Below the pieces are notes generated by a model. The model did no database searches. It was not told the origin of the DNA and saw only the letters and a list, made by a program, of their open reading frames with translations. The position numbers and the translations under genes are program-made. A stretch of 60,244 nucleotides of DNA, taken from Candidatus Cloacimonadota bacterium (lineage in GTDB: Bacteria > Cloacimonadota > Cloacimonadia > JGIOTU-2 > B8-G9). The DNA lies in NCBI GenBank assembly GCA_003647765.1, contig QMNM01000001.1:1-60244 (forward strand), given 5' to 3'. How positions within the stretch are numbered: position 1 is the stretch's first letter; every line of letters starts with the position of its first letter. Positions 1-35,966 of the stretch are shown here, one piece after another.

Positions 1-123
1 AGAGAAAAGAGAAGAAGATATATTGAAGTGGCTGGATGATAACACTGAATCCTTACCTGAAGATTCTTTTCATCCTGAACTTATACCTGATTATACTCCG
101 ATTCCTTCCAAGCCTGTTTTGAA
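1..123. repeat. Terminal direct repeat copy A, identical to 60122-60244. Indicates a circular or circularly permuted genome of 60,121 bp.
   Basis: The window start agagaaaagagaagaagatatattgaagtgg...aagcctgttttgaa recurs exactly at the window end. Confidence 0.95.
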
Positions 124-3100
124 ACGGAAGCCCGAAAGGGTCTCTATGTTTTCTTTTGGTGTAGATTCAGATTTATCTCTGAAGAAGAAGATAGAATCAG
201 CGTATTCTATTTTTCAGAATGATTGGAGAGAGTTTTTACAGGCAAGGAAGGAGAGGCTTTCTCTGGCATGGAAGGCTGTATCAAAAGGCATAATTTCTCC
301 TGAAGAAGTAGATAAATTTGATTTTGTAGTTTCTGCTCTTGAGTGGGTAAAAGGAACTGATTTTAAGCATTTAATTAAGCGTGGGTTAGTAAATGAAAAG
401 GAAGCAAGGGTAAGGATTAAATTTTTTGAGACTTATGCCCAGAGAGTATGGAATGCTATTGGTGAAAGGCTTACAGGTTTAGATAATGTTTTAAAGAGCT
501 GGGCAAGGGGTGAGTTAAATTCAATAGATCCCAAAGATACTATTCATATAAGAGGATTGATTGAAGATGCTTTATCTGATTATCCTGCTTATACTCTCCA
601 GCAGTTAATAGAATTGCGTCGTGCTCATCGTATAGAGATTATTAGAAGGCTCTCAAAGAGTTATGCTTATACTTTACTGGACAGGTTTATTGAGAAAGGC
701 AGGAAGATAGATAAGAGTAGTTTAGATGCGATTTATAAGCAGTTAAGGAAATATGTAATCGGGTCTTATGTTTTAGCGATAGAAGGGAATGAGCGGAGTC
801 CTTTATTGAAAGAGTTAATGGGAGCTGGGTTATCAAAGCAACAAGCTATTCAACTTGTAAAGAATTCTTCTGCCAGAGCGACCCTGTTTTATCTTGATTA
901 TTTCTGGAGCAATTATGTTAAGGAATCAATGGGATTTTACAGGCTGGATACTCCTTTAGGCTGGGCTGGTGGTTTATTTAAATGGACCTGGGATTTAATC
1001 AAACTTGATTTCAATGCTCTACCTGCCAAATCAAAGAGATTACTGGTTGGCGAACTAGAAGATAACATTCTTCCTACAATAGATAAATTTATAGAGTTTG
1101 GTGATAAGTTATTAAGCATAAGGAAGACTCTGGAGCTTCCAGAGTATAAGCATATTTCAGCTATTAGGGCTTTAATGAAGAAGTTGCGGGATACTATTGA
1201 TGCTTATTTAAATAAGTCTTTGGATGTGAAGAAAGCCCAGAGAGAACTGGAGCATATCTGGAATGTTATTGTAGATAAATATGCAGTAGGGAATCACAGG
1301 GTTTTAGCCAAACTGGTTGCTAGAGAATTATTCCTTACTAATGCAAGGATTGGTTTACATAGGAAAGATGTTTCTGATTTTGAGAGATATAAATATCAAT
1401 CTGATGGTTTCCTGCGATTCTTGAAGCGGTATAATGATGCTTATAGTGCTTTATTGTATCTGGCAAAGAATGGAGAAGGTGCGACAAAGATTGTTGCAGA
1501 GCATTTATTGAAACTTCCTTATACCAGTATAGTTCTTCCACATGTTCCTATTAGGTTTGTAGAGAATTTATTTGGTGGAAAGACGACTGGTTTATATCGT
1601 CCCTATGAAGGTAACATGTTTGGAGAGATTATTGTTGATCCGAATGCTCTGCCCGATATTTTTGAAGCTACCATTTTTCATGAAATTTTACATGCATTGA
1701 CATTACATACACTTCATTTTTCCAAGAAAAGAGAAGAATATAGGGAAAGAATTAATAGTATTATAAACGATATTCGTCCATTGATTTCGGAGGAAGAATA
1801 CAAGTTAGGAAAATGGATAGTAGAAAATGAAGCAAGGCTTACCAAGCATGAATTGAAGGAAAAGATTGATAAGACTATTGCGAAAGATAGTCTTTTACAG
1901 GAGCATGTAGCTAGGTATGGAAAGCAGTCGTGGTTATCTTTTCTTGTTTCTCTACATGATCCTGATGAGTTTATTGTAACAGCTATAACTGAACCTGCGG
2001 GCAAGTTGTTCCTTATTGAGCATGATAAAAAATCCATCTGGAGAAAGATTCTTGATTTCATCAGGAACTTGTTAGGATTTCCAGTTGAAAAGAGAGAATT
2101 GTTTATCAGGACAGTTGACACTTTGATGGATATTGTTGCGGAATCTCATCCTATTTATGTTGCAGCTTTCAGGAAATACTTTAAGTTGCCTATAAATAAA
2201 ACTTTATATCAATTAGCTATGGCTTCTGCTGAAGAACTTTCTGATTTGGCTAACAGGATACAGAAAGAACATGAGTTAACAAGGCAAAGAATTAATCTTT
2301 CTGATTTTGAAGATAAGGTAAAAGATTTTGTTGAGCATATAAGGACATACAAAGCTCCTCCGCAAATGAAGGATATTAATATAATCAGGGAAAAATTTGG
2401 ATTACCTTTCTGGACAGCACTTCAAAATGAGTCTTTTAAGCCTTTATTTGATCATGTTACAAAGACAATGGAGAATAAGAATTTCACTTTACATGCTATT
2501 CTTCAGAAAGGAGAGACATATTTTAATGGGCTTGATGAAAAAAGAAGAAAGTATGTGGATTCTGCTATAAAGATAAGCGATGCTTTACAGGTCAGATTTA
2601 CGGAGGAGCATTTAAGGAATTTTCCAAGAGTTATTTCTAACATGAAGATTGCGTTCAATTTGATGTATCAGCTTTTGAAGCAGGAAGAAAGGTCTGGGTT
2701 AAATAGAAAGCAGAGAGCAGAGAGAAGGCAGGTTGTCCTGCAACGATTAAATGAAGCCACAAAGTTAGATTTACCAAAAGAATACTCTCAACCGCAGTAT
2801 GTTATCAGGTTTAAGCATTTCTTTGATTATGCAAGATTGCCAATAGACAAGTTATCCGATGAAGAAATAAAAGCATATAATAATTATGCAGAAGTAACTC
2901 AAGAGACTTTGAATCATCTAGGCGATACTTTCTTATCTCTGGTTTGTAAGCTGGTAATAAAGAACTATTTACAGAAGTTAAAGATAGATGTTCCTTCTAC
3001 TGTTCAGACTCAATGGATAAATACTTTAGTGGAGTTTGGTAAGGATATAGAGCAGGCTAGAGAGCGGGTTGCCCGAATGAATCCAGAAGCTAGAGAGATT

Positions 3101-5302
3101 TGGGAATCATTACTCAATGATTTGGAGGCTCATTCTCTCTATCAGAAATACAAAGAGATTCAGGATTTGATTAAAGATACCAAATTCTATTCTCCTCGTA
3201 TGAGAGATCCTGATGCTTCTGATATGATTGTAGTTGTAGAGAGAGAAAAATTCTTGGAAGAATACAGGAAGGCTTATAGAGAGACAGGTAATAGAGCGAA
3301 GGCTTTACAGCAAGCGTATTATGCGACTGCGAATGCCAATGGTGTCTATTTAAGAGAGCATGTTAGAAGAATAGATCCTGATTATAAGAGAAAGTTAGAG
3401 CATATTCAGTCTGTATTTAAAGATAGCAGGTTTCTTGTGCAGAGATTACCTAATTACAAGTTAGCGGAATCTGTCTGGGGCAATGTAAGTGAAGGAGATC
3501 TAGGAGCATTTCTCTCTGCTGTTGCAGAAAAAGTAAGGAAAGAAAATGTTGATTCTGAAACTTTAATGGGATTCTTGGAGAAGGTTGCAGATACAATTCA
3601 GACTGAATTGTTAGCTAAAAGTAGAGCAAAACAGAGATTTATTAAGAGAAATCCTTATCTGATTTTAGGATATACTCTGGATAATGTAAGGGAAGAATTA
3701 TTCAATTATGTAAACAATGCTTCTAATTATGCTGCCCGAATGGTAGCATTGGTAGAAGGATTACCTTTATTGAATCAAATAGATCCTTATCAGCAGAGAA
3801 GGTTGAGAGATTATGCTCATAAATGGTTCTTTGATCAATTGAAGCCACAGAGCCAGTTTGATCGTATTGTAGGAAAAGTAAAATCCTTGATGTTTATCTG
3901 GTATTTGGGCGGAGTGATTCGTCCTGCTTTAATTCAATTTACACAAATGTTTATTTCTACCATTCCAATGACAAGTATTGTTTATGATATTCCAATAACC
4001 AGAAGTATCTCTGTTTTTATGAAGGCTTATAGAGATGTATTGGATCACAGGAATTTAGATGAAAATAAGTATTTGACTGCGGACGAAAAAGAGTTCCTGC
4101 GGATTACATATACAAGTGGAATAACCACAGCTCAATTTATCAATCAGATGAGAGATGAAGTTGCGGGCAGAGGAAAAGTTCTCTCTACTCTGGCTACTTG
4201 GTTGACTACTCCTTTTGCATATATGGAAGAAAATAACAGGCTGGCAACAGCTTTAGGAATTTACAGGATTTTGAAAGAGAAAGGAATAGTCAGGCATGCA
4301 AAGGATAAGAAAGCTATGGAAGAAGCTACAACAATTGTTAATATGTCTCATTATTTAATGGGTAAACTCAATCTTCCTATTATAGCAACAGGTGGAGATG
4401 TGGCTTCTGGTTTAATGCGTCTAGCTCTTACTTTCCGTTCATTTACATTAAACTTATTAGAATCTTATATTTACATGCTCCGACATCTGCCTAAAGGACA
4501 GAGAGTTTGGGGTCTCAATAAAGAAGGATTGAGATTTGTTGGATATAGTTTTGCTGCCTTTACCTTATTCGGTGGAATTCTAGCAATACCTTTCCTTGAT
4601 GACTGGCTACAATTATTAGAAAGATTGACAGGAATTCCTATAAGAAAAAGGTTAGTTACTGTATTTGGAAATCCAGATTCTCCGCTATCTGTTGCTTTAG
4701 AAAGAGGATTACCTGCTGCCCTGATAGGTATGGATTTAAGCGGTTCATTGAAGATAGAATTCCCAAGACGACCAGAAGATATTTTGAATACTATTTTTGG
4801 AGTATATGGTGGACTTTCAAAGAGTTTTGCGGACGCAATGGTTGCTTTAGATGGTTATGATAGTTTGAACATCTTGTATAGGATTATGCCACAAGTGTTT
4901 GCCAATCCGATCAGGGCTTATGAAGCATATAAAGGAATAAAGAATCAATACAATAAAGTAATTCTGGACGAAGAAGGGCGACCATTGAGACTTACAGAAG
5001 GAGAAGCTGTCCTACTTGCACTTGGAATTAGACCAACAAGGTTGGGCAGAACTTATCTCTATAAGAGCACAAGTAGGAACATAGAAAAATACTTTGATAG
5101 TAAGCGGAAGGCTATATACAATGCTTATAGAAGTGCAAAGACTGCATCAGAGAGATGGAAAGTTTACAGGATGATTTATGAATATAACATGGAAGCTGCC
5201 AAATATGTATCTATTCCAAAGATTACTTTACAATCCCTGAAGGCAGCTTCCAAACCTGTTGAGAGCAAGCTAACACAAGAATTGAAACTTAAGGGTTATT
5301 AA
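1..5302 (+). CDS. Giant virion/ejection, polyvalent-like protein, C-terminal part. It is the continuation of 57084..60244 across the circular junction.
   Basis: The frame is open from base 2. Positions 23 and 60144 are equivalent and in frame with the ATG at 57084. An HExxH motif (HEILH) lies at 1679-1693. Several hydrophobic TM-like segments occur near the C-terminus (SLMFIWYLGGVIRPALIQF, FVGYSFAAFTLFGGILAIPFL). It is the last gene of the structural operon. Confidence 0.8.
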   Translation, partial: EKREEDILKWLDDNTESLPEDSFHPELIPDYTPIPSKPVLKRKPERVSMFSFGVDSDLSLKKKIESAYSIFQNDWREFLQARKERLSLAWKAVSKGIISPEEVDKFDFVVSALEWVKGTDFKHLIKRGLVNEKEARVRIKFFETYAQRVWNAIGERLTGLDNVLKSWARGELNSIDPKDTIHIRGLIEDALSDYPAYTLQQLIELRRAHRIEIIRRLSKSYAYTLLDRFIEKGRKIDKSSLDAIYKQLRKYVIGSYVLAIEGNERSPLLKELMGAGLSKQQAIQLVKNSSARATLFYLDYFWSNYVKESMGFYRLDTPLGWAGGLFKWTWDLIKLDFNALPAKSKRLLVGELEDNILPTIDKFIEFGDKLLSIRKTLELPEYKHISAIRALMKKLRDTIDAYLNKSLDVKKAQRELEHIWNVIVDKYAVGNHRVLAKLVARELFLTNARIGLHRKDVSDFERYKYQSDGFLRFLKRYNDAYSALLYLAKNGEGATKIVAEHLLKLPYTSIVLPHVPIRFVENLFGGKTTGLYRPYEGNMFGEIIVDPNALPDIFEATIFHEILHALTLHTLHFSKKREEYRERINSIINDIRPLISEEEYKLGKWIVENEARLTKHELKEKIDKTIAKDSLLQEHVARYGKQSWLSFLVSLHDPDEFIVTAITEPAGKLFLIEHDKKSIWRKILDFIRNLLGFPVEKRELFIRTVDTLMDIVAESHPIYVAAFRKYFKLPINKTLYQLAMASAEELSDLANRIQKEHELTRQRINLSDFEDKVKDFVEHIRTYKAPPQMKDINIIREKFGLPFWTALQNESFKPLFDHVTKTMENKNFTLHAILQKGETYFNGLDEKRRKYVDSAIKISDALQVRFTEEHLRNFPRVISNMKIAFNLMYQLLKQEERSGLNRKQRAERRQVVLQRLNEATKLDLPKEYSQPQYVIRFKHFFDYARLPIDKLSDEEIKAYNNYAEVTQETLNHLGDTFLSLVCKLVIKNYLQKLKIDVPSTVQTQWINTLVEFGKDIEQARERVARMNPEAREIWESLLNDLEAHSLYQKYKEIQDLIKDTKFYSPRMRDPDASDMIVVVEREKFLEEYRKAYRETGNRAKALQQAYYATANANGVYLREHVRRIDPDYKRKLEHIQSVFKDSRFLVQRLPNYKLAESVWGNVSEGDLGAFLSAVAEKVRKENVDSETLMGFLEKVADTIQTELLAKSRAKQRFIKRNPYLILGYTLDNVREELFNYVNNASNYAARMVALVEGLPLLNQIDPYQQRRLRDYAHKWFFDQLKPQSQFDRIVGKVKSLMFIWYLGGVIRPALIQFTQMFISTIPMTSIVYDIPITRSISVFMKAYRDVLDHRNLDENKYLTADEKEFLRITYTSGITTAQFINQMRDEVAGRGKVLSTLATWLTTPFAYMEENNRLATALGIYRILKEKGIVRHAKDKKAMEEATTIVNMSHYLMGKLNLPIIATGGDVASGLMRLALTFRSFTLNLLESYIYMLRHLPKGQRVWGLNKEGLRFVGYSFAAFTLFGGILAIPFLDDWLQLLERLTGIPIRKRLVTVFGNPDSPLSVALERGLPAALIGMDLSGSLKIEFPRRPEDILNTIFGVYGGLSKSFADAMVALDGYDSLNILYRIMPQVFANPIRAYEAYKGIKNQYNKVILDEEGRPLRLTEGEAVLLALGIRPTRLGRTYLYKSTSRNIEKYFDSKRKAIYNAYRSAKTASERWKVYRMIYEYNMEAAKYVSIPKITLQSLKAASKPVESKLTQELKLKGY

Positions 5303-7673
5303 AACTCAAATCCTTTCCTATTTTTCCTTCAGTTTCAATGGGGTATCCAACATTGATGCCCCAATGCTTTTTTATGTATTCTTTCGTTCTATTTTCAAAA
5401 CAATCTTTCAATATCTCTTGTGCTTTTTCGGCAACATCTTCTCTTGCTCTATAATAGTAGGCATCGTGGATAAAAAGGTTAGTCAGGATTACTTTATCTT
5501 TCAGGTCGGGGCGGGATTTTATTTCCTTCCAGAACAACATTATTCCAAGACATGCTAGTTCGCTACTGAAATTCTGAACAGGAGTATTGATTGCCTGCCT
5601 TTCCGCTTTACTTCTCAACCTGAAATCATCAGAATCAATATGCGGTAAATGTCTTTTCCTTCCTAAAACACATCTTATATACTTATGCTTTCTTGCAAAC
5701 TTAACCATTCGTTCATGATATAAAGGAAGTTTCCAGTATCCATTGGGTTTAGAGAAGAAAAGTTCTCTATATCGCTCTGCTTCTTCTAAAGTGAAGACGA
5801 CATCATAGTTTTTAAAAGCATAATCAACCAGAGAATTTGCCTGCATTCCGTATATTAATCCAAAATTTATCGGCTTTGAGAGCTGTCTCAAGTCTTTAGT
5901 AATTTCTTCTAAAGGCTTTCCTGAAATAAGGGAGGCTGTTCTTTTATGTAAATCTATCCCTTCATCTAAAGATTTCAGGATATTTTCATCTTGAGCCAGC
6001 CAGCCTATTATTCTCATTTCACTTTGACTTAAATCCTGACTGCATATAACCCAGCCATCTTCGGCTACAATATTTCCCAAAACCTTTTCAGAGAATTCTC
6101 CGTGTGCTGGAAATTGTTGCATAGGAGGGTCTAATATTACAGTTCTCCCTGTTACTGTTCCTGTTAGGAATATCTTTGGGTAAATATATCCATCTGGATA
6201 CAGATTTTTTCTTATTGCTTTGATGTAAGTGTTCAGAATTTTGCTTATCTGTTTATATCTTAATAGCTTTGCGACCCATTCGTTATCTTTGAATCGTTTT
6301 AGATGATATTTATCGGTAGAAGGTTGTTTTGTTTTTTCTGTAAATTCAACAGGTTTCAATCCCAGCCCTTTCTTTGTAAACATAAACTTTGCAATGATGT
6401 CGGGAGTTAATGAGTCTGCATCTTTCTTTATTGATTTAGGGATAGCATCCATTAATTCCTTTTCCAATTTTTTCATCTCTGTATAGAGAGAATCTTCGTT
6501 TTCATCTAGTTTATTCAGGTCTATTTTCCATCCGTTCGCAGATACATCGCTGAAAACGTTTTCAACGGGAAGGCAGTAATATTTGTAATATCTGGTTAAT
6601 TTTTTATCTTCCATAATCTTTTTCTTCAGGACATTGAAGACTTCAATAGTAACTTTAGCATCAAGACTGACATAATTCAGGAGCTTGCTTTCTTCTAATT
6701 TTTCCATCTCTGTCCTATTTCTATTCACTACATCTTTTATATTGTAGTAGGAAGTGAAGACATTTGCCAGATGCTCTAGGGAATAGGAAGCTAGGTTTTC
6801 ATCTACAACATGAGCCATTGTCATTACATCAAATATTTGTCCTTTAACTTCGCAACCAAGATTCTTTTTACATACAAGTTCATCAAAAGGACGATTATGC
6901 ACGACTTTCTTTATATTCTCATCTTCCAGTATTTTCTTTATACTTTCTTTGAGTTTATTGTCTTTGGTAAGGGATGCGTAGGGCAACCCTTCTTTTCCTG
7001 CCAGACCTATACATAAGACTTTTCCTTTCATGTGTGCGACCCGCAGGTTCTCTGTTTCAAGGTCAAAAGCTATTATTTTTCCTTTGGGCAAATTGATTGT
7101 TGTATATTCATGTTTAAAATCTTCCTTCTGTTTATAGAGAGCGACAGCATGTTTGATGTCGGCATAAAACAATTTCTCTACTTCATTCATCTTTTCTAAT
7201 GGAATATACGGATACCCACGCTTGCATTGTCTTAAAACATAGGCAGGATGAAATGTTGGAATAACAACAGCATCTCCGAAGGGAAATTGTAGTCCTCTGA
7301 AACTGGAAATTCTTTTCTTATTGAACATCTGATAGAGAGCCAGTTCTCCTAATAAGACAATCACTTTGGGTTTGAGGATTCCCAGAGCTTTTACAACATG
7401 TTCTTTACAGCACTTTGATGCTTTTTCTAAATCGGTTTTTTTATCCTGCCCTAATTTCTGGCACATTGTAGCATTCAAGATAGATATATCTACTCTAGAC
7501 ATCCCAAAGAGTGAAAACGTTTTCATTAAGAGTCGCCCACTTTCTCCTACAAAAGGACGACCTTCTCTTACTTCTTCCCACCCAGGACCTTCTCCTATAA
7601 CCACAAATTCAGGATTATTTTTCTCATATTTAACTTTCTTTCTTCCTTTAAAAGGACAATCTTTACAGCTCAT
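5289..7673 (-). CDS. polA: Family-A DNA polymerase fused to an N-terminal family-4 uracil-DNA-glycosylase-like domain and a 3'-5' exonuclease domain.
   Basis: UDG4 motifs GEGPG..PFVGESGRLL and HPAYVLR, plus N-terminal Cys residues. Exo I motif FDLETENL. Pol motif A DLSQSEMRI and motif B RQLSKPINFGLIYGM. Motif C-like IHDA. Confidence 0.9.
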   Translation of the reverse strand: MSCKDCPFKGRKKVKYEKNNPEFVVIGEGPGWEEVREGRPFVGESGRLLMKTFSLFGMSRVDISILNATMCQKLGQDKKTDLEKASKCCKEHVVKALGILKPKVIVLLGELALYQMFNKKRISSFRGLQFPFGDAVVIPTFHPAYVLRQCKRGYPYIPLEKMNEVEKLFYADIKHAVALYKQKEDFKHEYTTINLPKGKIIAFDLETENLRVAHMKGKVLCIGLAGKEGLPYASLTKDNKLKESIKKILEDENIKKVVHNRPFDELVCKKNLGCEVKGQIFDVMTMAHVVDENLASYSLEHLANVFTSYYNIKDVVNRNRTEMEKLEESKLLNYVSLDAKVTIEVFNVLKKKIMEDKKLTRYYKYYCLPVENVFSDVSANGWKIDLNKLDENEDSLYTEMKKLEKELMDAIPKSIKKDADSLTPDIIAKFMFTKKGLGLKPVEFTEKTKQPSTDKYHLKRFKDNEWVAKLLRYKQISKILNTYIKAIRKNLYPDGYIYPKIFLTGTVTGRTVILDPPMQQFPAHGEFSEKVLGNIVAEDGWVICSQDLSQSEMRIIGWLAQDENILKSLDEGIDLHKRTASLISGKPLEEITKDLRQLSKPINFGLIYGMQANSLVDYAFKNYDVVFTLEEAERYRELFFSKPNGYWKLPLYHERMVKFARKHKYIRCVLGRKRHLPHIDSDDFRLRSKAERQAINTPVQNFSSELACLGIMLFWKEIKSRPDLKDKVILTNLFIHDAYYYRAREDVAEKAQEILKDCFENRTKEYIKKHWGINVGYPIETEGKIGKDLSFNNP
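6551..6564. repeat. TGAAAACGTTTTCA palindrome, perfect copy, inside polA.
   Basis: Read as E-N-V-F. Confidence 0.95.
7512..7525. repeat. Palindrome, perfect copy, inside the polA UDG domain.
   Basis: Read as K-T-F-S. Confidence 0.95.
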
Positions 7674-33083: not shown

Positions 33084-35966
33084 ATGGAGAGTTTCTCTAT
33101 AAACGAAGTTCCTTATAACTTCAATGATGTTCCTACCATTAAGAAGTTTTATCTTTCAAACAAGAAAATCAGGGCTATTGTAGGACCGTATGGTTGTTTT
33201 CCAGAATATTGTGAGTATTTGAGTTTTTCTGATGGAGAATATCGCTGGAAGAAGATCAAGGATTATCAAGAAGGGGAAAAGATTGCGGTTTATGATTTTG
33301 AGACAAAGGAGCTTCGGTTTGAGAAGCCTTTGGCTTATGTAAAGCTCCCTATGAATGATCTCTGGATTCATATTCGTGGCAGTAGATTTTTTGAAGCGAT
33401 AGTTTCTCCTGAACATGTCTTTCCCTATATTGTGTCTCATTCTGGGAAATATGGAGTGAAGTCCATTACTGAATTGATTAAGTGGGGGATTACGAATGCA
33501 AGGGTGGTTAATACTTTTCGCATTTGTGGGGAGACTTTTGGTTTAGATGAGTGGTTGGTCAGGTTTATAGCGATGCTTTCTGCTGATGGGCATAAGTGTT
33601 CTGATACCAGATGGCAGGTTTCTTTGAGGAGACGGAGGAAGATTGAGAGGTTGGAGTTTTTGTGCAGGAAGGTAGGAGTTCCTTATTCTCGTAAAGTTTA
33701 TGATTCCCGTCCTACTGAAAATGTTTTCATTTTAGATTTATCTTCTCATCCGCAACTTGCGGGGTTGACCAAGAAGTTTCCGAATTATTTTTACAATTTA
33801 TCTTCTGATTTACTTGATGTTTTAGTGGATGAGATTTTGTATTGGGACGGCTCATTTTACAATGGGAATGATAGGAGATATTTTACGACCATTAAGGAGA
33901 ATGCTGAATTTATCCAGTATGCTTCTCATGCAACGGGCAGGCGTGCTTCCGTTCTTAAAGTTTCGTATCCGAAAGATAATTGGAAGGATTGTTATATTGT
34001 TCATATTTCTGGGAAGGGGGTAAAGAAGACCTGTTTTATTGACAAGGATGCTCCTAAAGATAGGTCAATAAGGTATATTTCTCCGAAGGAAGGTGAATTT
34101 AAGTATTGTTTTACCACTTCAACAGGGTTTTTTCTTGTTAGGTTTAATGGAGCTGTTTATATTTCTGGGAATTCGGGCAAGTCATCTGGTTGTGTTATTA
34201 CTATGCTTCGTCATACTTGTGAGCAGATGCCAGATCCGCATGGGATAAGGAGAACTAGATGGGTTGTTGTTAGAAATTGTTATTCTGATGATACAGAGAT
34301 TCTGACAGAGAAGCGGGGCTGGGTATTGTTTAAAGATTTACTTCCTGATGATAAGGTGGCTCAATATAATCCTGCGACTGATAGATTGGAATTTGTAAAG
34401 CCGACTTATTATTATCGCTCCTATTATAGTGGAGATATGATTTGGGTTCATTCCAGTAGAAAGGAGCTTGATCTTCTTGTTACTCCAGATCATAGGCTTT
34501 ATGTTGCTGATTATAAAGATGGAAAGTGTGGGTCTTTTGATTTTAAAATGGCAAAGTTTTGTTATGGGAAGAAAGTTGCTTTTATTGGTTCTGATGGAGA
34601 GTTGATAGTTGCAGATGAATCTGATTGGGATATGGTAGCTTATAGTGGAATGGTTTATTGTGTAGAAGTTCCTACTCATATCATTTTGGTTTGCAGGAAT
34701 GGAAAACCAGTTCTTTGTTCCCAGACTTACAGACAGCTGAAGGACACAACCAAAAAGACAATAGACTACTGGTTGCGGTTTGCAGAATGGAGAGAATCAG
34801 AGTTTAAGTATATTCTCAAGTTCAGGTTGCAGGATAATACGATAGTGGAGTCTGAATGGCTTTTGAGAGCGTTGGACAGACCAGAGCATATTGCGAATTT
34901 ACTTTCTTTAGAGATAACGGGTGCGTGGTTGAATGAAGCAAGGGAGATTCCGAAGGAGATTTTTGATGCGATAGAAGGAAGATTGCGTTATCCTCCTACA
35001 ATAAGAGACAGAGATGGGAAAGTTTTATATGGTCCTACTTGGTTAGGGATTTTGTTAGACACGAACCCTCCTGATGAAGATCATTGGTTTTACAAGTATT
35101 TTGAAGAAAATAGACCAGAGAAAGCGGAGATTTTTCATCAGCCATCTGGTTTATCTCCTGAAGCGGAGAATATCAGGAATCTTCCTCCGAATTATTATCA
35201 GGATCTTTGTGTTGGCAAGGATCAGGATTGGATAGATGTTTATGTGCATGGGAAATATGGTTCTGTAAGGTCGGGCAAGCCTGTATTTTCTCTCTACAAT
35301 GATGAGATTCATTGTGCGAAAGAGCCGTTAGCTCCATTGATGGGATTTCCGTTGATAATTGGAATGGATTTTGGTTTAACTCCTGCTGCTGTGATTTTAC
35401 AGAAGCCTCCACGCAGGTTATTTGTTCTTGATGAAGTTGTAGCTGAAGAACCGATTGATGTAATTGAGTTTATTCGTTATATGCTTCTTCCTTTTATGGA
35501 GGAGAAGGAATTTTATCGGGGCAAGAATTTCATAATTGTGGGAGATCCAGCAGGTAAGGCAAGGTCGCAGGTTGATGGAAGGAGTGTATTTGAAGCGATA
35601 AATCAGTTAGGGTTGCGTGCTTATCCTGCCTATACGAACTCTTTACAAATCAGGTTAAATGCGGTAAATCAATATTTAACAAGATTGGATACTTTTGCTG
35701 GGGAGATGAAGCCAGCGTTTTTATTATCTCCTACTTGCAGGATGCTGAGGCAAGCCTTGAAAGGGAAGTATAGGATGAAAAGGGTAGCGACTGGGACAGA
35801 TATGTATTCTGATGTTCCTGTGAAGGACAAGTGGTCGCATGTTGCGGATGCGTTGCAATATGGAGCTTTAGGGTATAGGAAGCCGACTTTTAATGAAGAA
35901 TTTGATGAGTTTTCTAACATAGAAGGGCGGGGAGGACCAACGCATTTAGGAACAGGTATTTATTAA
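33084..35966 (+). CDS. terL: Terminase large subunit interrupted by two inteins. The spliced product would be about 485 aa.
   Basis: The split Walker A is IVGPYG / SGKSSG. VVVRN / TYRQLKDTT is also split. Walker B-like WLNEARE. Nuclease motifs IIGMDFGL, GDPAG and HVADALQY. Confidence 0.9.
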   Translation: MESFSINEVPYNFNDVPTIKKFYLSNKKIRAIVGPYGCFPEYCEYLSFSDGEYRWKKIKDYQEGEKIAVYDFETKELRFEKPLAYVKLPMNDLWIHIRGSRFFEAIVSPEHVFPYIVSHSGKYGVKSITELIKWGITNARVVNTFRICGETFGLDEWLVRFIAMLSADGHKCSDTRWQVSLRRRRKIERLEFLCRKVGVPYSRKVYDSRPTENVFILDLSSHPQLAGLTKKFPNYFYNLSSDLLDVLVDEILYWDGSFYNGNDRRYFTTIKENAEFIQYASHATGRRASVLKVSYPKDNWKDCYIVHISGKGVKKTCFIDKDAPKDRSIRYISPKEGEFKYCFTTSTGFFLVRFNGAVYISGNSGKSSGCVITMLRHTCEQMPDPHGIRRTRWVVVRNCYSDDTEILTEKRGWVLFKDLLPDDKVAQYNPATDRLEFVKPTYYYRSYYSGDMIWVHSSRKELDLLVTPDHRLYVADYKDGKCGSFDFKMAKFCYGKKVAFIGSDGELIVADESDWDMVAYSGMVYCVEVPTHIILVCRNGKPVLCSQTYRQLKDTTKKTIDYWLRFAEWRESEFKYILKFRLQDNTIVESEWLLRALDRPEHIANLLSLEITGAWLNEAREIPKEIFDAIEGRLRYPPTIRDRDGKVLYGPTWLGILLDTNPPDEDHWFYKYFEENRPEKAEIFHQPSGLSPEAENIRNLPPNYYQDLCVGKDQDWIDVYVHGKYGSVRSGKPVFSLYNDEIHCAKEPLAPLMGFPLIIGMDFGLTPAAVILQKPPRRLFVLDEVVAEEPIDVIEFIRYMLLPFMEEKEFYRGKNFIIVGDPAGKARSQVDGRSVFEAINQLGLRAYPAYTNSLQIRLNAVNQYLTRLDTFAGEMKPAFLLSPTCRMLRQALKGKYRMKRVATGTDMYSDVPVKDKWSHVADALQYGALGYRKPTFNEEFDEFSNIEGRGGPTHLGTGIY
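33195..34172 (+). mobile_element. Intein 1 (326 aa) with a LAGLIDADG homing-endonuclease domain, inserted in the terL P-loop.
   Basis: It starts with Cys38 (CFPEY...). Block B is VSPEH. The LAGLIDADG-like segments are FIAMLSADGH and VDEILYWDGSF. It ends ...VYISGN, followed by Ser. Confidence 0.85.
33716..33729. repeat. Palindrome variant (TG centre), inside the intein 1 endonuclease domain.
   Basis: Read as E-N-V-F. Confidence 0.9.
34278..34724 (+). mobile_element. Intein 2, a mini-intein of 149 aa, in terL.
   Basis: It starts CYSDDTEILTEKRGWVLFKDL. Block B is LVTPDHRLYV. Block F/G is VYCVEVPTHIILVCRNGKPVLCSQ, followed by Thr. Confidence 0.8.

Follow-up and report, generated by a model that had tools for sequence, protein, structure and literature searches.

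The stretch of DNA considered here, hereafter the window, comprises 60,244 nucleotides of a contig assigned to Candidatus Cloacimonadota bacterium (QMNM01000001.1, positions 1 to 60,244) and carries a gene for a phage large terminase (TerL) whose open reading frame (ORF) is interrupted by two inteins. The second of them, intein 2, is a mini-intein of 149 residues that ends in Ser-Gln, and it is the main subject of the present report: it is likely to be an active intein of the class 1 type, which would rely on the cyclisation of its C-terminal Gln. The TerL locus is organized as follows (arrows mark the splice junctions).

33084 to 35966, + strand: TerL precursor ORF of 960 amino acids with two inteins, spliced product of 485 amino acids (from the ORF call, the match to the intein-free TerL P0008 and the structural model of P0008)
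33195 to 34172, + strand: intein 1, 326 amino acids with a LAGLIDADG-type endonuclease, inside the Walker A motif (GPYG↓C...SGN↓SGKS)
34173 to 34277, + strand: inter-intein extein of 35 residues, SGKSSG...RWVVVRN (aa 364-398), which holds the Walker A helix alpha1 and strand beta2 (from the alignment and DSSP)
34278 to 34724, + strand: intein 2, 149-residue mini-intein from Cys1 to Gln149 (residues 399-547 of the precursor; from intein-free homologues, a deletion allele in run X4, an AlphaFold2 (AF2) model and Foldseek)
34725 to 35966, + strand: C-extein, i.e., the remaining ATPase domain and the nuclease domain, beginning with the helix TYRQLKDTTKKTIDYW (from the alignment; helix 74-88 of the model)

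The precursor starts with MESFSINE...GPYG, followed by the insert of 326 residues (aa 38-363), the 35 residues of the inter-intein extein and the segment of 149 residues. Searches for the host protein were run with the 485-residue product from which both inserts had been removed. They retrieved P0008, an intein-free TerL of 485 residues that shares 96% identity over 100% of the spliced window TerL and carries the PF04466 (Terminase_3) domain; the interrupted window protein itself scores 22.3 bits against this family, just below the cut-off of 23.2. Neither P0008 nor a profile of 34 TerL sequences gave any match among the sequences of the PDB, and the TerL fold was therefore established through structure prediction and Foldseek. 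The AF2 model of P0008 (predicted local distance difference test, pLDDT, 87) has the TerL of D6E as its best Foldseek match (E 1e-21), and also resembles the large terminases of Sf6, T4 and P74-26. As modelled, the host protein is a large terminase of the Terminase_3 / PBSX type, with the two-domain fold made of an ATPase and a nuclease. In this model, DSSP assigns residues 40-54 to a helix and residues 62-71 to a strand, both within the inter-intein extein. The insertion point of intein 1 is located in the P-loop, after strand 29-33 and before helix 40-54, and that of intein 2 in a two-residue turn leading from strand 62-71 to helix 74-88. Around the latter position, R71 and N72 show no variation among 34 intein-free TerL homologues, and T73 is conserved in at least 90% of them.

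Intein 2 reads CYSDDTEILTEKRGWVLFKDL ... LVTPDHRLYV ... MVYCVEVPTHIILVCRNGKPVLCSQ and is flanked by WVVVRN and TYRQLKDTT. It contains the following elements.

34278 to 34340, + strand: block A (CYSDDTEILTEKRGWVLFKDL), with Cys1 (34278-34280) as the N-terminal nucleophile
34473 to 34505, + strand: block B, LLVTPDHRLYV, with Thr69 (B:7), His72 (B:10), Arg73 (B:11) and Leu74 (B:12)
34569 to 34574, + strand: Lys98-Lys99, the site of an endonuclease domain of the LAGLIDADG type (~180 residues) in full-length orthologues, absent here (from the alignment with P0012 and P0013)
34650 to 34703, + strand: block F (MVYCVEVPTHIILVCRNG), with Cys128 (F:4), His134 (the block F His), Cys139 and the conserved Arg140
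34704 to 34727, + strand: block G and splice junction, KPVLCSQ↓T, with Ser148 as the penultimate residue, Gln149 (CAG) as the C-terminal residue and Thr+1 (ACT) as the C-extein nucleophile

The boundaries of the element are given by homologues that do not possess it. At the junction, P0008 reads WVIVRN↓TYRQLKDTT with zero extra residues and, in the alignment, the same segment runs uninterrupted as R(W/F)V(I/V)(I/V)RN↓TYRQLKDTT in P0008, P0009, P0010, P0011, P0015 and others, more than 30 TerLs besides P0008 being devoid of intein 2. Three more closely related TerLs, P0012, P0013 and P0014, carry an insert at the identical point, which likewise ends NGKPVLCSQ↓TYRQ. The same boundary appears at the DNA level in contigs from public metagenome runs placed on the window: in run X4, a contig with a depth of 131 joins position 34277 straight to position 34725 and skips 447 nucleotides that begin with TG and end with AG. 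This contig shows 0 differences from the window over the 102 nucleotides between the two inteins and 7 over the 519 nucleotides that follow intein 2. The original prediction, which had recognized a second TerL intein of the mini type with a Ser-Gln end, a Thr at +1 and no penultimate His, is borne out in each of these points. The strings that it quoted, its coordinates and its numbering of Q547 and T548 agree with the translation of the ORF; the extein context VVVRN↓C...Q↓TYRQLKDTT is the one given independently by P0008 and by the X4 allele; and the alignment that it had called for to locate the C-terminal boundary places the end of the insert at Gln, both in intein-free homologues and in the X4 deletion allele.

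A first search with the 149 residues alone was poorly informative, since Pfam returned only a sub-threshold match to the NHL repeat and phmmer found nothing significant among PDB sequences, where Sonic hedgehog appeared at E 1.6. The AF2 model built from an alignment of the window intein and 23 mini-intein relatives is all-beta, with a pLDDT of 97.3 and a predicted template modelling score (pTM) of 0.90. Among PDB entries, the 50 best Foldseek matches of this model consist solely of inteins, bacterial intein-like (BIL) domains and hedgehog autoprocessing domains, headed by 6zgq, the AceL NrdHF intein (E 6.5e-9, template modelling score 0.75). A profile of the family retrieves the same entry from the PDB sequences at 2.8e-9, together with the KlbA intein of Mja at 1.8e-5; in the profile alignments, block B of the window intein faces SPNHRM of AceL NrdHF, and the window VYC is aligned with IYD of KlbA, which places Cys128 at position F:4, occupied by Asp in KlbA. 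On this evidence, intein 2 is a hedgehog/intein (HINT) fold and not a native domain of TerL.

With respect to the intein classes, several features of class 1 come together here, namely an in-frame insert absent from orthologues, the HINT fold, Cys1, a Thr-x-x-His motif and the Gln149↓Thr+1 junction. The penultimate position (G:6) holds Ser148, a His being common at this position in inteins but not obligatory. As regards class 3, Cys1 is present and, at the positions of the Trp-Cys-Thr triad, occur Leu74 (B:12), Cys128 (F:4) and Cys147 (G:5), so that Cys alone fits. BIL domains lack a nucleophile at +1; in the TerL clade, a Thr or a Ser is conserved at this position. With 149 residues and no endonuclease between its splicing lobes, the element corresponds to a mini-intein.

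A phmmer search with the 149 residues yields 6578 proteins at E<=1e-3, of which 1915 reach E<=1e-10, which is far beyond chance, and by similarity intein 2 belongs to a very large intein family. The endings were counted in ~165 intein copies of this family, drawn from the 150 best representatives and from TerL homologues. Among them, 132 end in Gly-Asn and 25 in Gln (14 SQ, 8 GQ and 3 others), and none possesses a penultimate His, the sole His-Asn ending being that of the IMG/VR locus L027. The lack of a penultimate His is thus the norm of the family and not a defect of the window copy. A Cys1 occurs in all of the 162 copies in which both ends were located; P0260 was considered as a member starting with Val, but this results from an alignment offset of one residue and the Cys is present. 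Residues T10, G14 and W15 are invariant among the mini-inteins, and T69 and H72 are family-invariant.

The Gln ending goes with the insertion site. Of 20 inteins located at the TerL site (R-N↓T/S-Y-x-x-L), 19 have a terminal Gln, compared with 133 of 140 with a terminal Asn at other sites and, similarly, six of the eight TerL-site loci of IMG/VR end in SQ, all the IMG/VR inteins at other sites ending in Asn. The neighbour-joining tree built from the splicing domains gathers the 20 TerL inteins with a Gln ending in a clade which, taken from their most recent common ancestor, contains 21 tips. Judging from these sequences, the inteins of the TerL site constitute a single clade, with a C-terminal position that has become fixed as Gln, usually preceded by Ser. 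The clade and the Asn-ending members of the family compare as follows: Gln149 in 20/20 against 0/135; the block F His134 in 20/20 against 60/135; Cys128 (F:4) in 20/20 against 129/135; His72 in 20/20 against 134/135; and a penultimate Ser in 14, Gly in 5 and Met in 1 against Gly in 129/135. The Gln ending, described as rare in the original prediction, is indeed so among inteins generally but is the rule at the TerL site. Such a natural series, with a Gln fixed across deep divergence, a block F His always present, a Gly-Asn family background and intein-free, full-length and mini forms side by side in related metagenomes, appears not to have been described previously.

Two particular cases were encountered around this clade. 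One Asn-ending intein, that of P0214 (from aa 406), lies inside the Gln-ending TerL clade and ends ...YMWSSN↓SDTTMK; judging from the conserved DTT, its insertion point may lie a few residues further downstream, within the same helix of TerL. In addition, two IMG/VR contigs (L011, 3001-3342, and L012, 2373-2714) bear a TerL-site intein related to the Gln clade, identical in sequence in the two metagenomes, that ends ...FWCVR↓SYNQLKDTT. Its last codon, CGG (Arg), is one transition away from CAG, and its block F is devoid of His (VYCVEMEEVPVYV). Since Arg cannot cyclise, this intein is either dead or uses something else.

The metagenome runs also document how the intein is distributed in natural populations. 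Contigs bearing the double-intein allele come from runs of two studies, one of them labelled as a hydrothermal vent metagenome, and related runs derive from marine sediment. In X4, the allele missing both inteins (across 33193-34176 and 34277-34725) reaches a depth of ~131x, compared with 3-6x for the intein-bearing fragments, whereas in X1-X3 the intein-bearing allele was recovered and no intein-free joint was seen, with the reservation that contigs drop rare variants. In contigs of X1 and X2, both ends of intein 2 are matched and positions 34427-34646 are replaced by a different sequence; in X4, a loose end at 34647 reads KRMWYKQDYE and resembles the endonuclease-bearing P0012. The inteins of P0012 and P0013 (325 and 331 residues) contain a LAGLIDADG domain (PF14528) between Lys98 and Lys99, and the mini forms are those of the window, P0014 and P0128. 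A full-length version of intein 2 thus appears to circulate in the same samples and, across the runs and related metagenomes, all the stages of a homing cycle were seen: the empty site, an allele with a different middle part at the place where orthologues hold the endonuclease, and the mini form. As a separate observation, the pS (proportion of synonymous differences) between intein 2 and the TerL gene of L002 (7054-8928) is 0.58, compared with 0.82 for the surrounding TerL exteins, and this lower value suggests that the intein has moved between TerL lineages after their divergence.

That intein 2 splices, and by which chemistry, is something we infer from its boundaries, fold, family and conservation, and from the presence/absence polymorphism observed in the DNA. 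It would be the endonuclease-less descendant of a LAGLIDADG-bearing intein that homed into this single TerL site. Splicing would begin with an N-S acyl shift at Asn398-Cys399, aided by Thr69 and His72, after which the N-extein would pass to the side chain of Thr548. Gln547 would then cyclise onto its own carbonyl, giving a glutarimide and not a succinimide, and release the intein; finally, an O-N shift would create the Asn-Thr peptide bond and restore ...VVVRN-TYRQLKDTT.... By analogy, Arg73 (B:11), which would act on the scissile carbonyl, and the clade-invariant His134 probably take over from the missing penultimate His. In this respect, the B:11 Arg of the AceL NrdHF intein contacts the carbonyl of the C-terminal scissile bond, and the G145H mutation inactivates this intein because of a clash with the B:11 Arg; the AceL NrdHF intein ends in Thr-Gly-Asn and, without either His, splices within minutes (PMC7891396). 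Other functional inteins without the G:6 His are known, and F:4 is most often an Asp and then a Cys (PMC4031507). Similarly, the splicing of a phage intein whose penultimate residue is Gly becomes slower when this Gly is replaced by His, and the block F His has been suggested as a substitute for the penultimate His (PMC5050341).

Several points weigh against an active intein of this type. No splicing experiment was found in the literature for intein 2 or for any member of the Gln-ending TerL clade. The roles proposed for Arg73 and His134 are argued from the AceL NrdHF intein only, and the residue at B:11 varies within the clade, with R in 7 members, K in 6, H in 4 and N in 2. Codon 139 (34692-34694) is TGC and encodes a Cys specific to the window, at a position where Arg occurs in 19/20 members of the clade and in 128/135 other copies; this Arg139Cys change could slow or impair splicing. 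Cyclisation of Gln is slower than that of Asn in two of the three studied cases (PMC4031507). Finally, synonymous sites are saturated in most pairs and make the ratio of non-synonymous to synonymous substitution rates (dN/dS) rough, so that only the proportions of non-synonymous (pN) and synonymous differences and the codon changes seen in the population were used.

The alternative to be drawn from these points is that the intein is real but that the window copy is splicing-impaired or very slow, via Arg139Cys or via its Ser-Gln terminus, with the consequence that little mature TerL would be formed or that this genome would represent a dead-end variant. It is unlikely, in spite of some arguments in its favour. 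Cys139 is unique in the clade, at a position where at least 90% of the copies carry Arg, and a co-occurring variant allele, found in runs X1 and X5, has CGT (Arg) at this codon. The depths recorded in X4 are dominated by the intein-free allele, and the Gln-ending PolII inteins of Pyrococcus abyssi (Pab) and Methanoculleus marisnigri (Mma) are slow (PMC4031507). However, in X1 (~23-27x), X2 (~14x) and X3, the last from a different study, the intein-bearing form is mainly the Cys139 allele, which therefore evidently propagates. The catalytic positions C1, T69, H72, C128, H134, Q149 and T+1 are all intact, and residues other than Arg are tolerated at 139 elsewhere in the family, namely K, A and M, with W or S in isolated sequences. 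Strong purifying selection acts on the TerL exteins (dN 0.023 and dS 0.40 compared with P0008, hence a dN/dS of ~0.06, to be taken as rough), and intein 2 compared with its orthologues in L002, L003 and L004 gives a pN of 0.25-0.28 and a pS of 0.58-0.74, similar to those of the exteins. Over the last 15 codons and the junction, a comparison of the variant contigs with the window shows 8 codon changes that are synonymous and 2 that are not. The changes at the junction, Ser148 TCC>TCG, Gln149 CAG>CAA (runs X3 and X5) and Thr+1 ACT>ACA, are all synonymous, and the two amino-acid changes are I136V and C139R. The original prediction had hesitated between a non-canonical but active intein and an impaired one; the conservation throughout the clade of the Gln, of the Ser/Gly that precedes it and of the Thr/Ser that follows it, associated with the exclusively synonymous variation at the junction, favours the former.

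If intein 2 is active, the question arises whether Cys128 would serve as a covalent station, either in a relay from Cys1 to Cys128 and then to Thr+1 or through a direct attack of the class 3 type that would make Cys1 dispensable. All members of the clade and nearly all the other members of the family carry a Cys at F:4. The closest solved relative, on which fold and profile agree, has been proven to be a class 3 intein; it uses its F:4 Cys (PMC7891396) and shares the block B motif S/T-P-N-H-R-M/L and a Gly-Asn type of ending. Furthermore, the orthologue of intein 1 in P0029 starts with Pro but keeps a Cys at F:4, a Thr at G:5 and a Ser at +1, and a Thr or a Ser at +1 is typical of class 3 inteins (PMC2807308). 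Nevertheless, such a role of Cys128 is improbable: the occurrence of Cys1 in all 162 copies argues that it is needed, and the class 3 signature is incomplete, with Leu instead of Trp at B:12 and Cys instead of Thr at G:5. Moreover, F:4 is known in class 1 inteins as an assisting position often occupied by Cys (PMC4031507), so that its invariance need not mean a covalent role. For these reasons, intein 2 is not filed as class 3. A broader and equally doubtful proposal would be that the two-thiol relay, or splicing independent of Cys1, extends to the whole family, which would then form a pool for the repeated origin of class 3 inteins, and that the last step at Ser-Gln is slow or conditional. 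If it were true, the AceL NrdHF intein and the Pro1 variant of P0029 would be examples of class 3-type inteins arising from this family, the Ser-Gln end would be co-adapted, and a redox or temperature gating in vent and sediment habitats could time the maturation of TerL. A Cys1/Cys128 pair acting as a relay would bear on the origin of class 3 inteins.

It is barely conceivable that the insert is a native insertion domain of TerL, or a non-splicing HINT or self-cleaving domain of the BIL type. Pfam and the single-sequence PDB searches gave no significant match for the 149 residues and BIL domains occur among the Foldseek matches, but the insert is absent from a TerL with 96% identity, from dozens of homologues and from an environmental allele; it splits the invariant R-N-T motif at the passage from a core strand to a helix, and its orthologues bear a homing endonuclease. 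It also combines Cys1, the T-x-x-H motif, a cyclisable C-terminal residue and a Thr at +1, the nucleophile that BIL domains do not possess (PMC4031507), and its host is presumably an essential single-copy enzyme that must be re-ligated. A native TerL domain, put forward in the original prediction as a finding that would speak against an intein, is contradicted by the fold and by the intein-free homologues. As for a C-terminal junction at Asn141 (...VCRN↓GKPVLCSQ, with GKPVLCSQ as extein), the other such finding put forward, an Asn does lie eight residues upstream, but the possibility is negligible since the P0008-type alignment and the X4 contig agree on Gln, GKPVLCSQ being absent from intein-free homologues and the X4 deletion ending at 34724, and since +1 would be a Gly, which is no nucleophile, and Asn141-Gly142 belongs to the RRNG hairpin of block F, conserved family-wide and always followed by 7 further intein residues.

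Compared with the inteins described so far, an active class 1-type intein 2 would find its nearest structural counterpart in AceL NrdHF (PDB 6ZGQ; Hoffmann et al. 2020, PMC7891396), which originates from a phage-like Antarctic metagenomic contig. Both share a Cys at F:4, the lack of a penultimate His, an Arg at B:11, a size of ~146-149 residues and a block B of the form (S/T)-P-(N/D)-H-R-(M/L). AceL NrdHF, a class 3 intein that occurs naturally in split form, has Ala at its N-terminus and Cys124 as its first nucleophile; its last residue is Asn, it possesses no block F His, and its host gene encodes a ribonucleotide reductase (RNR). The window intein is instead a contiguous element of the TerL gene, with Cys at its start, Gln at its end and the block F His retained. 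The C-terminal Gln is shared with the PolII inteins of Pab and Mma and with the RNR intein of Chilo iridescent virus (CIV), all shown experimentally to splice, the Gln taking the place of Asn as the residue that cyclises (PMC4031507). In contrast to the slow Pab and Mma inteins, that of CIV performs better with Gln than with Asn (PMC4031507), which suggests a co-adapted active site. These three inteins differ from that of the window in their host proteins, insertion sites and lineages.

According to work on the inteins of mycobacteriophages (Kelley et al. 2016, PMC5050341), TerL is the most frequent phage host, with insertions concentrated in the ATPase domain; the P-loop, where intein 1 resides here, is among the sites. 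Class 1 phage inteins that, like the window intein, have no penultimate His do splice, e.g., the RDF intein with a penultimate Gly (PMC5050341). The mycobacteriophage inteins occur in Terminase_1 and Terminase_6, at sites a-g, whereas that of the window occupies the strand-helix turn after Walker A in a TerL of the Terminase_3 type; Gln is not mentioned in that report (0 occurrences). The DnaB of M. smegmatis (Kelley et al. 2018, PMC6195587) similarly contains two inteins in a P-loop ATPase, one inside the P-loop and one of the mini type, and its F:4 Cys acts as a redox-sensitive toggle (PMC6195587), but it is a cellular helicase with a canonical class 3 intein, DnaBi1, and Asn is the last residue of both its inteins. 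The Gln end, the missing penultimate His and the F:4 Cys each have an experimental precedent, and the modestly new point is the existence of a site-specific TerL clade in which Ser/Gly-Gln is fixed. This clade offers a convenient system for asking why Gln has been retained over Asn, and a source of compact 149-residue inteins with a Thr at +1 for protein engineering. In terms of annotation, the phage TerL should be regarded as intact and described as a 485-residue enzyme derived from a 960-residue precursor via two splicing events, not as a disrupted gene.

Intein 1 is absent in P0008-P0015, and the same site is occupied in P0029, P0034 and P0053, according to the alignment. Its N-terminal part gives a weak match to the hidden Markov model (HMM) of the family (independent E-value 1e-6), and a scan of the window with the same HMM detected no copies besides the two TerL inteins. 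It possesses a Cys at F:4 (KYCF) and ends in Gly-Asn, so it also lacks a penultimate His. Its block A reads CFPEYCEYL, compared with C(V/L)SGDTE(F/Y)L in P0034 and P0053, the usual Asp-Thr being replaced by Tyr-Cys. In P0029 (TerL of 795 residues), the P-loop intein GPFG↓PLPEDTEFL... keeps the Cys at F:4, the Thr at G:5, the Gly-Asn end and the Ser at +1; without an N-terminal nucleophile, it looks like a class 3-type variant within an otherwise Cys1 group. The occurrence of two inteins within 180 extein residues had been considered notable. Two inteins are indeed present, but the gap between them amounts to only 35 residues (aa 364-398) and the arrangement is not exceptional: about 6 of the 19 other proteins of the TerL-site clade are long enough for two or more inteins and, taken together with the DnaB precedent, these long members indicate that two inteins in a single P-loop ATPase are no exception.

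Elsewhere in the window, a tRNA scan found none, and the contigs of the genome gave as best match for the phage host a metagenome-assembled genome of Campylobacteraceae, at 52% only, which is too weak to name a host. An ORF of 1759 residues that starts near the edge of the window (23-5302, + strand) has no Pfam match at E<=1e-3. Positions 5292-7673 (− strand) encode a family A DNA polymerase in which an N-terminal domain of the uracil-DNA glycosylase superfamily is fused to the 3'-5' exonuclease and polymerase domains.

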